Positions 9,777 to 37,787 of a stretch of DNA of 64,000 bases are shown one piece after another. The DNA comes from a virus. Below the pieces are notes generated by a model. It did not search any database. It saw only the letters and a list, made by a program, of their open reading frames with translations, and was not told where the DNA came from. Each line of letters starts with the position of its first letter. The first letter of the stretch is position 1. The stretch covers positions 43,277-107,276 of IMG/VR virus record IMGVR_UViG_3300050025_000126, one strand, 5' to 3'. Position numbers and translations under genes: made by a program.

Positions 9777-10253
9777 CTACTTCTTGTTCTTTTTGGCAAG
9801 CAATTTCTTTGTACGCTTTGTGATTTCTAGGTCTACGAACAACCTGGCCATACGTAGCCGCTTGGGTTCTTCAAATGCGTCAAAAAACCACAAATAAAAC
9901 AAGGCCTTCTCAATGTTCCTAGGTGCCTTCCCTACGATGGCGACAATCTTATTACCGCTCTGGTGGTTAAGGCACGAAGAGTCTTGCTTCCAGCGATTCT
10001 TTTTGTCTCCCTTACGGAACCTAAGGGTCTTTCCTGTCTGTTGAAAGTATTCCCTATTGACATACCAACGGGCCTTCTTCAAATCCTCTAGGGGGCTCCA
10101 TTTGTTTTCAAAACGGAACAGATACTTAAAGGCGTTCCCAGGATTAAATCCCATATATCCACACATTTCAATTGCTTCTATACCAGAAGGGTGCGAGGTA
10201 TAATGCGCTGGGTGGTTTACGGGATTGTTGACGAGCTTAGACTTTTTGGCCAT
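9777..10253 (-). CDS. DUF3310 / T7 gp1.7-like protein
   Basis: VNHPAHY...GNAFKY...EDLKKARWY; start at 10253 lies 7 nt below a TATAAT. Confidence 0.8.
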   Translation of the reverse strand: MAKKSKLVNNPVNHPAHYTSHPSGIEAIEMCGYMGFNPGNAFKYLFRFENKWSPLEDLKKARWYVNREYFQQTGKTLRFRKGDKKNRWKQDSSCLNHQSGNKIVAIVGKAPRNIEKALFYLWFFDAFEEPKRLRMARLFVDLEITKRTKKLLAKKNKK

Positions 10254-10294
10254 ACTGGTAATTATACTCCGTTTGTTGAAATTGTAAAGCAAAA

Positions 10295-10444
10295 GCCTGA
10301 GGTAGGGATTGCACCTACACCGTCGTCGGTTCTGGCCTACGCCTTGATTGGATACTTGGGCCGAGGCCTTGCGCCTGTCAAGGTTGGTAGGATTACTAAG
10401 ACGAAAGTTCCCTTAAGCCGCTAGCAGCACTTCGGAACTCAGTT
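10295..10444 (-). ncRNA. tRNA-like RNA A5 (about 150 nt; acceptor-like stem and T-arm, non-tRNA core)
   Basis: CTGAG/CTCAG terminal stem; GTAGG-TGCAATC-CCTAC T-arm; internal hairpin CCTTG-ACAGGCG-CAAGG. Confidence 0.5.
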
Positions 10445-10446
10445 CG

Positions 10447-10568
10447 TGTACAGGTTTGGAATCGAACCAAAAATTCCACCGGTTCAAGGTGGTGATTTAC
10501 CTCTGCGTATCTGTAGATGTGGGTGACTATAGATTCCACAACCCAGATTATCTTTAATCTACCTGCAC
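10447..10568 (-). ncRNA. tRNA-like RNA A4: Phe(GAA)-like cloverleaf with about 50-nt D-loop insertion
   Basis: GTGCAGG/CCTGTAC acceptor; TA; GATT/AATC D-stem; CCACC-TTGAACC-GGTGG; TTTGG-TTCGATT-CCAAA. Confidence 0.65.
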
Positions 10569-10577
10569 GTATTAAAT

Positions 10578-10640
10578 TGGTGCGGAACAGCGTCTTATAC
10601 GGGGCGATAGCGCCTATCTCATATAGGTCCGATGTTCCGT
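10578..10640 (-). ncRNA. Mini tRNA-like RNA A3 (63 nt) with encoded ACCA end
   Basis: CGGAACA/TGTTCCG stem followed by CACCA; internal CCTAT/ATAGG hairpin. Confidence 0.5.
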
Positions 10641-10642
10641 TT

Positions 10643-10742
10643 GGGCAGGAGGAAGGAATCGAACCTTCGGTAGAGCGTATTCGTTAGAATCTTGCTCTGG
10701 CGGTCGTAATGCTGCTGTGTCTACCACTTCACCACTCCTGCC
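10643..10742 (-). ncRNA. tRNA-like RNA A2: Leu-type scaffold with mismatched anticodon arm and oversized variable arm
   Basis: GGCAGGAG/CTCCTGCC; D-arm GTG-AAGTGGTAGA-CAC; AGAGC...GCTCT arm; GAAGG-TTCGATT-CCTTC. Confidence 0.65.
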
Positions 10743-10746
10743 ATAT

Positions 10747-10879
10747 TTGCCCTCTTGTAGCTTTTTATCCGGATTAGTTATGCTACGACTGTAAGGTCGG
10801 TAAACGTCATTCCTTACTGTTCTGCGGATGCTCTCCAGCTGTCAATGACCGACTGGCATATCTACCACCGCAGGGGCAA
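10747..10879 (-). ncRNA. Structured multi-stem RNA A1
   Basis: TTGCCC/GGGCAA closing stem enclosing TGCGG/CCGCA, GTAAGG/CCTTAC and GTAGC/GCTAC arms. Confidence 0.4.
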
Positions 10880-10885
10880 TGTTAA

Positions 10886-11134
10886 TTACTTCTTTGCAAT
10901 CGGATTAAACAGACTGAACCCAATAAAGTAAATAGGTACAACTACCGTCTCTACCAAAAGAGCTGTCCAAATAATATTTCCTACGCTTACCTCATAGCGG
11001 ATTGTGGGGTCTTTGTTTTCGTCCTTGTTCAGTAGGCCATATGTAGGCTGACACTTACCTTCGATTACCTTTGGTTCTCCACACCCAACCATTAGACAGG
11101 CGCTTAGAACCACGGCAGCAATCAACTTCTTCAT
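10886..11134 (-). CDS. Small lipoprotein with C-terminal hydrophobic segment
   Basis: Signal peptide with LMVGC lipobox. Confidence 0.75.
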   Translation of the reverse strand: MKKLIAAVVLSACLMVGCGEPKVIEGKCQPTYGLLNKDENKDPTIRYEVSVGNIIWTALLVETVVVPIYFIGFSLFNPIAKK

Positions 11135-11374: not shown

Positions 11375-11402
11375 ATTATATCAGGTTTCTTTTTGTTGTC
11401 AA
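11375..11402 (-). promoter_or_regulatory. Strong sigma70-type early promoter
   Basis: TTGACA-16-TATAAT with extended TG; leader sequence duplicated at about 11772-11795. Confidence 0.8.
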
Positions 11403-32727: not shown

Positions 32728-33309
32728 ATGTATCAAGAAAATCGAGTTACAACAAAAGAATTCGGGTCACTGGCTACTAGCTCTGACCTGTTAGTAAACG
32801 TTCCTACAGCTCCTGGACACCCCCAACAACGCCTACATGTAGTTGCCGCTAAACTATTGGTTCCCATGTCTGAAGCCGTACAGAGAGACCTGGGCTTTCC
32901 TCTACTGGTAGCCTCAGGTTGGCGCCCTCATCGTTGGGCGTCTAGAGAACAGTATGAACAGGTTCTGATTCAAAAATATGGAAGCGTAGCTAAAGGTAGA
33001 TTATATTTGGCTTTTGACTCACCACATGAAACGGGCCTAGCAATGGATCTAGGTTGTGGCGGACTTGAACCAGTTTCAGCAACAATTGAGAAGCAAAAAT
33101 CAACCCCTCTGTTTAAATGGCTTGTTGAAAACGCTTATAAATACAATTTCACTCCATACCGCGTTGAGTCATGGCACTGGGAATGTCGGATTAGCTTAAA
33201 CGCATACGATTCTGGAGTAGCAGACAACACCACTCCAGAACCCGTAACTACTTGTATGGACCCAAATGACGTTTGTATCGAAACGGTTACAGCCCCGCTA
33301 ATGCCCTAG
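32728..33309 (+). CDS. M15-family (VanY-like) peptidase, probable endolysin
   Basis: SGWR, SPHETGLAMD, ESWHWE zinc motifs. Confidence 0.85.
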   Translation: MYQENRVTTKEFGSLATSSDLLVNVPTAPGHPQQRLHVVAAKLLVPMSEAVQRDLGFPLLVASGWRPHRWASREQYEQVLIQKYGSVAKGRLYLAFDSPHETGLAMDLGCGGLEPVSATIEKQKSTPLFKWLVENAYKYNFTPYRVESWHWECRISLNAYDSGVADNTTPEPVTTCMDPNDVCIETVTAPLMP

Positions 33310-34741
33310 CTCTAATTACGTCAAATCCTTCTTCGTAGACAAACTTACCGTCTACCCAAACCGGTTGCAAAACGCTTAGGGCTTCTTGTTCTGGTGTTGC
33401 CTGGCTTATTAGTTCAAGCTTACCGTTTGCATTAGGAATCACGGCTAGGCGACCTTTAGCAGAATTCTTCATGCCGTTATCTGTAATTGGCTTCTTGAAA
33501 ATGTCGTAGCCTTTGCCATCGATCTGAACCCAGGTAGCCTTCATGGCGAAACCAAAGGTGTCTCGCGTCACGTATTGATATGTGAAGCTGCCGATACCAA
33601 AGACCATATTGCCAGAAGCAAAGCCTTTCTTGGCCAAACCGTTGCAAATTGCCTCACAGCGCTCAAACGTAATAGAGTCGCCGTAGATGCATCCGATGTG
33701 CTGGTCAAGTAGTCGGTGCCCGGTATTAGTTTCCGTGCCTCCAAAGACGTCCCAGAGGCATTCCACGACGCCTTTATAGGCAGGGCTGCCAACGGCTGCG
33801 TCTGGGTCGCCACAGATAATCTTTACAGGGTCTCCGCTATCTGGCCGAATGACCACTTTGCCATAACGCGCCATAATCCTAGTCTTAAGGGCTGGCAGAA
33901 TCTTGGTGAGAACGGCCCAAAGGTCCCAAGTATCTGACACAATGCTTACAATGCCAGCAGGGTAGAGGTCAAGAAGACGTTCAAAGGTCTGCTGTTCGGA
34001 CATTTCGCCACCAGCACACATGACGCTGTGTTCGGTTGCCGCAACGCTTCCACCAATAAAATAATCTGAAGGTGGAGTATAGTAATCCTCAACAAAATCC
34101 AAGGCCGGAACCGTATCTGTACCGATAAAATACAACAAGTGCCCCGCTCCAGACGACGCAGCCGCTTCAGGACAGCCCATACCACGGAAGCTAAAATCAT
34201 GTCCCTGCCAGCCGACAAACCCATCGGGGCTACCAGTTAGCTTGGCCTTCTCATTCAAAAGCTTGCGCATCCTAGAAGCAGTAGTAGCAGATGTACAAGG
34301 CATCCATAGGACGCAAGACATAATTGTCTCAAAGTAGTTGACCAACCAGGCAAAATCTTTGTGGGTGTTTTCAACTGTCAGCATCGGGCAGCGAAGGGGG
34401 ACCTTAGAACCCTCCTTGACGGCAGAAAACTTGAGAGGCAGGTAACCTAAATTGTGTAGTTCGCGAATGTGGTCTGAGCCAATTTGGTTTGGGCCAAGAT
34501 AGCCATTGACACGCTTGGTATATCGGTCGCAGACTTCATCAACGTTAGAGGTAAAGAACTTGTTCCACTCTGCCATCATGTACTTCTTGAGGAAGAACTG
34601 GAGGCCGAAGAAAACAACCTCGTCCTGGGCAGCGATACGGGACATCCTGGGGGTCCAGTTGCTGTATACAAATTCCGTACATGTAGGATATTGACGCCTA
34701 TGGTCAAATTTGTATCCGTCAATCATAGTTTCTGGCTTCAT
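33287..34741 (-). CDS. nadV: Nampt-family enzyme (probably Namat of NARP1)
   Basis: DGYKFDH, HDFSFRG, ATEHSVM, SDTWD, IRPDSG, YGDSIT. Confidence 0.93.
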   Translation of the reverse strand: MKPETMIDGYKFDHRRQYPTCTEFVYSNWTPRMSRIAAQDEVVFFGLQFFLKKYMMAEWNKFFTSNVDEVCDRYTKRVNGYLGPNQIGSDHIRELHNLGYLPLKFSAVKEGSKVPLRCPMLTVENTHKDFAWLVNYFETIMSCVLWMPCTSATTASRMRKLLNEKAKLTGSPDGFVGWQGHDFSFRGMGCPEAAASSGAGHLLYFIGTDTVPALDFVEDYYTPPSDYFIGGSVAATEHSVMCAGGEMSEQQTFERLLDLYPAGIVSIVSDTWDLWAVLTKILPALKTRIMARYGKVVIRPDSGDPVKIICGDPDAAVGSPAYKGVVECLWDVFGGTETNTGHRLLDQHIGCIYGDSITFERCEAICNGLAKKGFASGNMVFGIGSFTYQYVTRDTFGFAMKATWVQIDGKGYDIFKKPITDNGMKNSAKGRLAVIPNANGKLELISQATPEQEALSVLQPVWVDGKFVYEEGFDVIRARALAGL

Positions 34742-35610
34742 TAGTAATTACCTTTCATCAATTGTTCACAAATTTCAATAACTTTTACACCTGGAATGTC
34801 TTCTGGCCGATTTACAATCGAATCAGTAGTATATACGTTTTCAAACCGCTTAGTCAAGGCTTTCGTTCCTTGGCTGAAAATACCGTGAGTTACAAAAAGG
34901 TCCGCATTAATATTGCTCTCTGCTAACTTATCACCGAGGCCTAGAAAGGTTCCTCCACCGTCGCAAATATCATCCACAATCAAAACCTTGTCTGTAGGGG
35001 CAAATGGTTCATGACCAAATCCTGTAATTTTGCCGTCTTTGACATCTCTAGACTTCCAGGCGTGGATAAGAGGAACCTTCATAGCCTTAGCAAACATCCC
35101 AGCACGCTTTTCAGCTCCTGCGTCTGGGCTAACTACCGCGCAATACTTTGGTTGGTAAAAATATCCAGAAAGGTGAAAAGCTATGTCGCTATGGACGACT
35201 TCGCAATTATTGATAAGGCCTGCAATTACCTCAGAGTGTGGGTCCAGGACGATAACCTTCCTAAACTGACGCTCATTAATCATATTAGCTACAGACTTAG
35301 CTGTAAACAAGAAGTCTCCTGTATTGTTCAAACGGTCTTGTCGTGCTCCTGGAACCGAGGGAAGGACGAGTGTTGGCAGGTCGTATCCACGCCACTTAAA
35401 GGCATCTACAAAAAACAATGCAGCAAGTAAATCTGTCATTGTAAGAGGCCTTACGAGGATAGATTTAAGGCTACCTTCAAATGGCCGAGCCTGACCCATA
35501 ACGTAATACTTTGGGTGTTGTACAATAGGAACATTGTCAGGATAGACGTTGTTGTCGATCTCGATAATTTGATTGGTGTTTGTTAGAGCGTGGATTCTTA
35601 CGTTTTTCAT
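34741..35610 (-). CDS. prs: Prs-like pyrophosphokinase (probably Adps of NARP1)
   Basis: ARQDR, DPHS, SPDAGA, IVDDICDGGGTF, THGIFS. Confidence 0.92.
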   Translation of the reverse strand: MKNVRIHALTNTNQIIEIDNNVYPDNVPIVQHPKYYVMGQARPFEGSLKSILVRPLTMTDLLAALFFVDAFKWRGYDLPTLVLPSVPGARQDRLNNTGDFLFTAKSVANMINERQFRKVIVLDPHSEVIAGLINNCEVVHSDIAFHLSGYFYQPKYCAVVSPDAGAEKRAGMFAKAMKVPLIHAWKSRDVKDGKITGFGHEPFAPTDKVLIVDDICDGGGTFLGLGDKLAESNINADLFVTHGIFSQGTKALTKRFENVYTTDSIVNRPEDIPGVKVIEICEQLMKGNY

Positions 35611-36683: not shown

Positions 36684-37787
36684 TTATTCAGTTATACCGA
36701 TTAGTTTCATGTATGCGCCTAGAGACAGTTTAGGTGATGTCAGACATTGAGCGGCTGACGCTCCGGTCTTGCGCATCTGGAAGAGAATAGAGGCGAACGG
36801 ATACTTGGTAGCTTCCAGGGCGAATTCCTTTTGGTTCTCAATATGCTTGATAGACTGATATGCCATAAATGCCGTGAAGCGACAATTAGCGTCTAGCTCG
36901 AAAATCTCGTCAAAAATCTTCCTCAATTCTGGGAAGCTATTGAGGGCCAACCCAAATTCAGAGGCTTCCCCCTTCCTAATTATTTCGCACATTCTCTTCT
37001 TGGACAAAGAGTCCTTGGCGTGGTGCAACATAACGTAGGCTGGCGACTTGATTTTAACACGGTTGAAATTGGCGTCAACTACAACGTACCCCTCGTGCTC
37101 CAAAGGATTAAGGGCTTCTGCTGCTTTGATACAATCATCAACAGAATGGAGAGGAAAGCTCTTAGGACAGGGGGTGTTGAGCTTATGTCCTAGCCCCAGC
37201 ATATTGGGAGTTAGCTCCTGTAGAGTGGTGTTGTCCCTAGCTCCTAGTAGCCAAATTTTACAATCCTTATGGTCGACTACAACCCTATTGAAAGGTGTGG
37301 TTAGTTCAAAAATCCAGGTGTAGCTTGGGCCTAAAAATTCAATCGTTGCTTTTTGGGCTTTAACAGTCTCCCAGAATAGCTCCTTGAAGGTCTTGCCAAA
37401 GCCGTTTACTTCACCAGATGCGTCAGGGGTTCCAGATGTTGCAATGTGCCACTTGTTGTCGTAATGGTAAAGCAGAATGAGGCTTCCGTCAATTTTTTCT
37501 TGCACCTCCGCAGTAAGCCAGTCGATGTTTGCGGCTAATGATTCGCTCTGGTTGTGGATTTTTTTAAATCCCATTGCCACAACGTTCCAATTGTCCGATT
37601 CGTCAAGTATGATTCCTCGGGCCTCTTGAACGATAGGCTCTTTGAACGGTGAGTCAATTTGATTATATTTAAAAAGACAAAGCTGCGGGTATTCACCGTG
37701 GCGCTTACAATCAATAGCAAAACGAGACTTTAGCTCTTCGATGCCATTTGGCGTTTCTCGTAAGAATTTTTGAGTTTCTAGTTCCAT
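36684..37787 (-). CDS. T4 Rnl1-like RNA ligase
   Basis: EARGIIL, EKIDGS, FEL, EGYVV, VKIK. Confidence 0.88.
   Translation of the reverse strand: MELETQKFLRETPNGIEELKSRFAIDCKRHGEYPQLCLFKYNQIDSPFKEPIVQEARGIILDESDNWNVVAMGFKKIHNQSESLAANIDWLTAEVQEKIDGSLILLYHYDNKWHIATSGTPDASGEVNGFGKTFKELFWETVKAQKATIEFLGPSYTWIFELTTPFNRVVVDHKDCKIWLLGARDNTTLQELTPNMLGLGHKLNTPCPKSFPLHSVDDCIKAAEALNPLEHEGYVVVDANFNRVKIKSPAYVMLHHAKDSLSKKRMCEIIRKGEASEFGLALNSFPELRKIFDEIFELDANCRFTAFMAYQSIKHIENQKEFALEATKYPFASILFQMRKTGASAAQCLTSPKLSLGAYMKLIGITE

Follow-up and report, generated by a model that had tools for sequence, protein, structure and literature searches.

A 122-nt gene on the minus strand of an uncultured phage (10568-10447) encodes a tRNA-Phe(GAA)-like RNA, the D-loop of which is split by an insert of 51 nt. 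The reading that ranks first, held tentatively, is that of a functional non-standard tRNA-like RNA, a tRNA mimic, that retains the insert as a fifth arm. Short inserts in phage tRNAs have already been published, and it is the D-loop site that is new here: in the literature searched, none was described in the D-loop of a tRNA from a phage or a bacterium.

The window, the stretch of 64,000 nt that was analysed, comes from an IMG/VR virus contig of 107 kb with an estimated completeness of 65%. Near-identical DNA is present in peat metagenomes. The target lies in a 585-nt stretch otherwise without genes (10295-10879), flanked on one side by small ORFs and on the opposite side by a DUF3310 gene and an ATP-dependent DNA ligase gene. 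This stretch consists of an array of five structured tRNA-like RNAs on the minus strand, of which the target is the fourth, and spacers of 2-9 nt make the packing tight. A perfect consensus sigma70-type promoter (11375-11402) is found upstream of the array on the same strand, sigma70 promoters being a bacterial-type feature of the phage. No tmRNA was called over the window.

Anatomy of the split gene

The 5' piece of the gene (10556-10568) is separated by 51 nt (10505-10555) from the downstream tRNA body, which is otherwise complete. From the 5' end of the RNA, the acceptor strand GUGCAGG (10562..10568) is followed by U8-A9 and the 5' D-stem strand GAUU (10556..10561), and then by the insert (10505..10555), which falls between tRNA positions 13 and 14, or 14 and 15, as the assignment of one A is ambiguous. 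The body resumes with the D-loop part AGAGGUA, in which A14, G18, G19 and A21 were recognized from the sequence, and the 3' D-stem strand AAUC (10494..10504). After a single A (A26) come the anticodon arm CCACC-UUGAACC-GGUGG (10476..10492), with the anticodon GAA at 10483-10485, a variable loop of 4 nt (AAUU) and the T-arm UUUGG-UUCGAUU-CCAAA (both within 10455..10475), which has a canonical T-loop with a G53-C61 closing pair. The RNA ends with the 3' acceptor strand CCUGUAC and the discriminator A (10447..10454). All these elements are on the minus strand. CCA is not encoded, and the next RNA of the array begins 2-3 nt past the discriminator. The anticodon arm (10476-10492) and the U-run at 10466-10475 (AAUUUUU) together form a weak intrinsic-terminator-like site.

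The two acceptor strands form seven of seven pairs, one of them G-U (10562-10568 with 10448-10454), and this long-range helix has a pair probability of 1.0 in the thermodynamic ensemble. The bases for tertiary contacts are all intact. Of the features of the Rfam tRNA family (RF00005), the 7-bp acceptor stem, the discriminator base and the UUCRANY T-loop closed by G53-C61 are present, whereas the D-loop of the gene amounts to 58 nt, against 7-11 nt canonically, and comes within that range only after deletion of the 51 nt. The initial annotation had proposed a tRNA-Phe-like, near-canonical cloverleaf once about 50 nt are taken out, and this was borne out: with the 51 nt deleted in silico, ARAGORN finds a regular 7/4/5/5 tRNA-Phe(GAA) cloverleaf of 71 nt with a 7-nt D-loop. 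The C noted at position 37 is indeed unusual, and it is not alone. The anticodon loop UUGAACC lacks the purine expected at 37, and positions 37 and 38 are both C. A canonical tRNA-Phe(GAA) is encoded elsewhere in the genome (39322-39396).

In the intact gene, only 10446-10516 was called by ARAGORN, with five of seven acceptor pairs and a D-stem of one pair. The Rfam tRNA model scored 24.3 bits over 10447-10506, as a D-armless tRNA, against a threshold of 29 bits. The upstream 5' piece is thus overlooked by standard tools. It is nevertheless no chance match, as only 138 of 200,000 dinucleotide shuffles (~7e-4) contained, anywhere in 300 nt upstream, a 13-nt piece offering seven of seven acceptor pairs and four of four D-stem pairs with the right spacing.

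The boundaries of the insert are ambiguous because AAUC occurs twice, at 10546-10549 and at 10494-10497, and deletion of the 52 nt between the two copies likewise yields a cloverleaf. The 5' D-stem strand can alternatively close a local hairpin, GAUU-AAAGAU-AAUC. In the free fold, the probability of this local D-stem hairpin is 0.43, versus 0.01 for the distal D-stem, and the free-energy minimum is without the distal D-stem. Just 5' of the body lies a second, weaker 5'-half look-alike, CUACAGA-UA..., which is the one chosen by ARAGORN.

The hairpin of the insert and a lake-water relative

A UGGGU/ACCCA hairpin had been recognized in the insert; it proved to be part of a longer, imperfect hairpin of 40 nt (10509..10548, minus strand) with 12 bp and a 13-nt loop (10523-10535), which forms in free as well as in cloverleaf-constrained folds. 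The hairpin fills 40 of the 51 nt, being preceded by 7 nt and followed by 4 nt of the insert. When the hairpin alone is removed, a D-loop of 18 nt is left and no tRNA is found by ARAGORN. The insert is no CCA-ended acceptor/T-arm minihelix, its loop being no T-loop and its 3' flank being ACGC rather than NCCA. The apical 24 nt (10521..10544, minus strand), which include the loop motif UCUAUAG (10527-10533), are identical in the one diverged relative known. This 24-nt core is unique within the window with three mismatches allowed, and it was therefore rejected as a repeated element.

Contigs of four public DNA runs were compared with the window over 10150-11000. Runs X3 and X4 have no coverage of the target. 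Run X2 is identical to the window here and may stem from the same population as the phage of the window. The relative is found in run X5, from lake water, where a 290-nt contig of depth 4 (record 10) matches 10521-10603; it was read partially, 56 nt including the 3' acceptor strand lying outside the view. There are no differences in the 24-nt tip, against eight substitutions and five gapped bases in the other 59 of the 83 aligned positions. The acceptor strand reads GGGCAAG instead of GUGCAGG, UAGAUU is kept, and the linker is GAAGGA instead of AAAGAU. Past the tip, the relative has a different stretch of 17 nt, comprising the 3' strand of the hairpin and a linker, and then CAGAGG-CUU-AAUCA, so that CAGAGG and AAUCA are likewise shared with the window. 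The insert of the relative measures 53 nt and occupies the same place, with the canonical D-loop bases on its 3' side. As the first base after the D-stem is G in the relative and A in the window, A14 must derive from the 3' side.

Both hairpins have a folding energy of about -11.7 kcal/mol. That of the relative is formed by a different 3' strand, in a shifted register. When the 3' strands were shuffled, the fractions were 0.06 and 0.05, meaning that the hairpins beat about 94-95% of the shuffled strands.

Further relatives were sought widely. Exact-pattern searches of IMG/VR with the 3' part of the tRNA, the 24-nt core, the upstream mini-RNA and the Leu-like neighbour gave no match, nor did the 24-nt core pattern in GTDB genomes. 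Chance matches alone (E ~1) were obtained by blastn against cultured phages. No relative of the whole array was detected with blastn and nhmmer among 174 fetched loci. The translated open frame across the target gene had no match in the protein collection, and searches with single neighbour proteins recovered no relatives of the RNA. Insertion-free alleles, which the initial annotation had suggested seeking among relatives, did not turn up in any collection searched (IMG/VR, GTDB, cultured phages, fetched loci and DNA runs).

Neighbouring RNAs, the second array and the RNA ligases

Other members of the array are also aberrant in structure. A Leu-like tRNA (10644-10741, minus strand; 37.6 bits) has a mismatched anticodon stem and an extra arm of 27 nt, and another member is a 60-nt hairpin with an ACCA end. 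The RNA that follows the target, of 150 nt (10296-10445, minus strand), has a small hairpin in its D-loop and, in the place of the anticodon, a long nested hairpin. A second contig of the lake-water run (X5 record 9) is identical to 10404-10463 and 10298-10320, and in it 122 unrelated bases replace the 83 nt from 10321 to 10403, which form this nested hairpin. From this comparison of sequences, the inserts on the tRNA-like scaffold of 10296-10445 appear to be exchangeable, and it is in such inserted modules that these arrays vary.

A second array at about 38840-39700 contains the canonical tRNA-Phe(GAA), a tRNA-Arg(CCU) and a tRNA-Ile(UAU) (38840-38927, minus strand) that has a fifth arm of 17 nt in the variable region. 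The loop of this fifth arm is anticodon-like, with the 7 nt CUAACAA, and CUAACGA is seen in the extra arm of the Leu-like RNA. By eye, at least one permuted tRNA-like RNA was also noted in this array (39234-39319, minus strand), consisting of a T-arm, a hairpin-closed acceptor-like stem, UA and a D-arm; its ends pair over 6 bp at the position of the anticodon stem. The literature searched held nothing specific on permuted tRNAs in phages. This topology, with the T-arm before the D-arm, matches that of the bacterial YrlA Y RNA, and it is not that of the target, which has the normal tRNA order. Neither Ro60 (TROVE) nor CCA-adding enzyme families had a match in the 107-kb contig, of which the completeness is estimated at 65%.

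The motif UCUAUAR occurs in four hairpin loops of the two arrays, all on the minus strand: 10527-10533, 38889-38895, 38981-38987 and 39069-39075. These are four sites in about 1.5 kb of arrays, versus 25 in 214 kb over both strands. The recurrence was spotted post hoc and is a lead only. The loop of the target hairpin reads UCUAUAG and the anticodon loop of tRNA-Ile(UAU) reads UCUAUAA, the other two having UCUAUAA or UCUAUAG. In the tRNA-Ile(UAU) loop, C replaces U at position 33, and the same loop is found in the viral locus L095.

Two RNA ligase genes stand beside the second array, 26 kb from the target. One is of the T4 Rnl1 type (36684-37787) and the other has a PHA02142-type OB fold (37843-38868). 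RNA ligases of this kind are known for tRNA repair. Near them is an NAD-salvage pair, NAMPT and a PRPP-synthetase-like gene (33287-35610). Together, the pair and the two ligases resemble an island of counter-defence genes next to the second tRNA array. Locus L095 contains the closest ligase relative, with 80% identity, and the tRNA-Tyr and tRNA-Ile(UAU) genes at its matching site are ordinary; the aberrant set of RNAs is therefore specific to the lineage of the window. The ligase-anchored loci have ordinary tRNAs near the ligase, or none, and these are no homologues of the target RNA.

Retention, splicing or decay of the insert

If the insert is retained, the RNA would be freed from a polycistronic transcript by host RNase P and 3'-end processing, and its 3' end would be completed by a host CCA-adding enzyme. 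The body would then adopt an L-shape from which the hairpin projects near the D-loop, and the invariant tip could conceivably be a handle that a partner, protein or RNA, recognizes by its sequence. The C37-C38 anticodon loop, together with the canonical tRNA-Phe(GAA) encoded in the genome, suggests that the RNA may act as a mimic or an adaptor, or perhaps, more speculatively, as a decoy, in a contest of phage and host over tRNAs, rather than as an ordinary Phe decoder. Phage tRNAs are now regarded as a means to counter those host defences that act by cutting or disabling tRNAs. The two RNA ligases and the NAD-salvage genes would fit such a contest.

Several observations argue for a retained arm. 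The 5' piece is not there by chance and the acceptor helix is robust. The tip is conserved at 24 of 24 positions while the linkers, the acceptor strand and the 3' strand of the hairpin differ, and the stem still forms. The hairpin makes up only 40 of the 51 nt, and its removal alone gives no tRNA. The extra arms of neighbouring RNAs (that of 10296-10445, of the Leu-like RNA and of tRNA-Ile(UAU)) cannot all be introns. The contig revealed neither splicing machinery nor a splice motif, the cut sites are unmarked, and the C37-C38 anticodon loop coexists with a normal tRNA-Phe(GAA). The presence of UCUAUAR in four hairpin loops of two arrays points the same way. Against a retained arm, position 13/14 adjoins bases that are buried in the tRNA core, and an arm kept there may hinder the contact of the D- and T-loops. 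The remainder sums exactly to a canonical tRNA, as an intron would leave it, and the distal D-stem, with its probability of 0.01, is absent from the free-energy minimum. Conservation is judged from one partial relative only, a single contig of depth 4 with the 3' acceptor strand outside the view.

The insert was earlier taken to be either a ligase-dependent mini-intron or a permanently appended domain. For the former, the ligases are real, but neither a bulge-helix-bulge (BHB) motif at junctions that would yield a canonical tRNA nor a ribozyme, EndA or RtcB came to light; the invariant tip and the extra arms of the neighbouring tRNA-like RNAs tilt the balance towards the latter. A protein-dependent mini-intron ranks second and is considered doubtful. 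Nucleases of the host or phage would excise the 51 nt while the acceptor and D stems hold the halves together, and a phage RNA ligase would seal them, giving a 71-nt tRNA-Phe(GAA) with an altered anticodon loop. Exact removal does restore a perfect cloverleaf with a canonical D-loop of 7 nt, and the phage possesses a T4 Rnl1-type and a second RNA ligase. The insert adjoins bases of the tRNA core, and the G that follows the D-stem in the relative places A14 on the 3' side, which is what an intron at 13/14 would entail. Short, sequence-invariant "enigmatic" introns have moreover been published for Lak megaphage tRNA genes (PMC6784885). However, an enumeration over the 122 nt uncovered no BHB at junctions that would give a canonical tRNA. 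The two strict BHB motifs in the 122 nt would each remove parts of the tRNA body and not the insert alone, and with AUCU/AGAU, the sole relaxed motif in the insert, a D-loop of 22 nt would remain. No meaningful family beyond tRNA was detected by Rfam over 10380-10800 with E up to 10, group I introns and self-cleaving ribozymes included. With 51 nt, the insert is also too short for a group I intron, the core of which takes roughly 200 nt or more. It is no mini-tRNA with a CCA end, of the sort that could be released by RNase P and RNase Z, and its hairpin stops 7 nt and 4 nt before the junctions, so that there is no structure at the cut sites. EndA (PF01974) and RtcB (PF01139) had no match in the 107-kb contig, estimated at 65% completeness, and could be supplied by the host. 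The ligases adjoin the other array and are of the tRNA-repair type, and no allele devoid of the insert is at hand. That the 51 nt are a true D-loop intron, with protein nucleases for the excision and a phage RNA ligase for the resealing, is judged unlikely.

It is also improbable, and ranked third, that we are dealing with a decaying or chimeric gene, namely a Phe tRNA gene that had its 5' end displaced by recombination or partial duplication in a tRNA array and that no longer gives a working RNA. In its favour are the AAUC repeats that flank the insert, the weaker 5'-half look-alike upstream of the body, C37-C38, the variable loop of 4 nt and the sub-threshold Rfam score. Two changes in the 5' acceptor strand of the relative would be mismatched with the 3' strand of the window, and ordinary tRNA-Tyr and tRNA-Ile genes occupy the matching site in the closest ligase relative. 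Yet the acceptor stem is paired at seven of seven positions, and the look-alike is absent from the relative. An invariant stretch of 24 nt amid change and a hairpin rebuilt with a different 3' strand are not expected of junk, and this reading is further contradicted by the intact bases for tertiary contacts and the tight packing of the array, with its 2-9-nt spacers. Highly improbable is the notion that the conserved 24 nt act at the DNA level, as a promoter or protein-binding site, or belong to a small plus-strand gene. An ORF of 56 codons does span 10517-10687 on the plus strand, which also reads GGGTGAC-TATAG, a sequence that we take to resemble faintly SP6- or T7-type promoters. The motif is, however, unique in the window even with three mismatches, and no sigma70-like site lies on the core, so that a sigma70 promoter there was rejected. 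In the relative, the plus-strand frame has lost the ATG and is ended by a stop after 17 codons, and the ORF was rejected as a gene on these grounds.

In Lak megaphages, the insert sequence is identical across variants of the tRNA genes; the calls came from the eukaryote mode of tRNAscan, in which introns are assigned to the anticodon loop, and alleles free of the insertion exist for some of them (PMC6784885). The target resembles them as a short insert in a phage tRNA, too small to self-splice and with an invariant sequence, here the core. It differs in lying in the D-loop, in the presence of C37 and in that no insertion-free allele was found. The tRNAs of archaea and of the red alga Cyanidioschyzon contain non-canonical BHB introns, including in the D-loop (review PMC4090602). 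As with those introns, the insert is outside the anticodon loop, its removal restores a cloverleaf, and the genome also holds permuted tRNA-like genes. Unlike those introns, it has no BHB at its junctions, and it belongs to a contig in which EndA is not found and the promoters are of the sigma70 type. Five-arm tRNAs, such as class II tRNAs and the tRNA-Ile(UAU) of the window, share with the target an added hairpin with an anticodon-like loop, the retention of which is putative here; their arm comes from the variable region, known to tolerate one, whereas that of the target comes from the D-loop. The tRNA cluster of phage T4 encodes small stable RNAs, species 1 and 2, which are structured, of obscure role, and transcribed and processed along with the tRNAs. 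The likeness lies in the association of structured RNAs with phage tRNAs, with no evident relation in sequence or fold. Intervening sequences of bacterial 23S rRNA are removed by RNase III without re-ligation. They too are extended hairpins at a loop, and the halves of the target could likewise stay paired, but a stem of 12 imperfect pairs is short for RNase III.

If the insert is retained, the tRNA fold can bear a functional D-loop arm, and the locus would point to a family of tRNA mimics in phages, each with a handle of specific sequence. If it is spliced, protein-dependent tRNA splicing extends to bacteria or their viruses, and to a site other than the anticodon; a true D-loop intron would reveal a cut-and-rejoin route of tRNA splicing in the bacterial world. 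To our knowledge, non-anticodon splicing of this kind is so far known only from archaea and a few eukaryotes. As it needs only a gene of 122 nt and the two ligase genes, and as the outcomes differ clearly in size, the locus is a compact test construct.

Other tRNA-like genes with inserts were observed in viral contigs that encode distant ligases. Genes of the tRNA-Ile(UAU) type measure 111 nt in three of them (L066:9561-9671, L075:10505-10615 and L076:7208-7318, all on the minus strand) and 124 nt in two others (L045 and L046:5131-5254). They have an insert of about 37-45 nt right after the anticodon, the start of which can pair with the anticodon loop, and this post-anticodon insert is conserved across three contigs. 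In two further loci (L058:10380-10537 and L080:9865-10121), tRNA-like ends enclose structured RNAs of about 120 nt and about 220 nt, respectively. These ends comprise a 7-bp acceptor stem and a canonical T-arm, and have the 3' strand CACUUCA in common.
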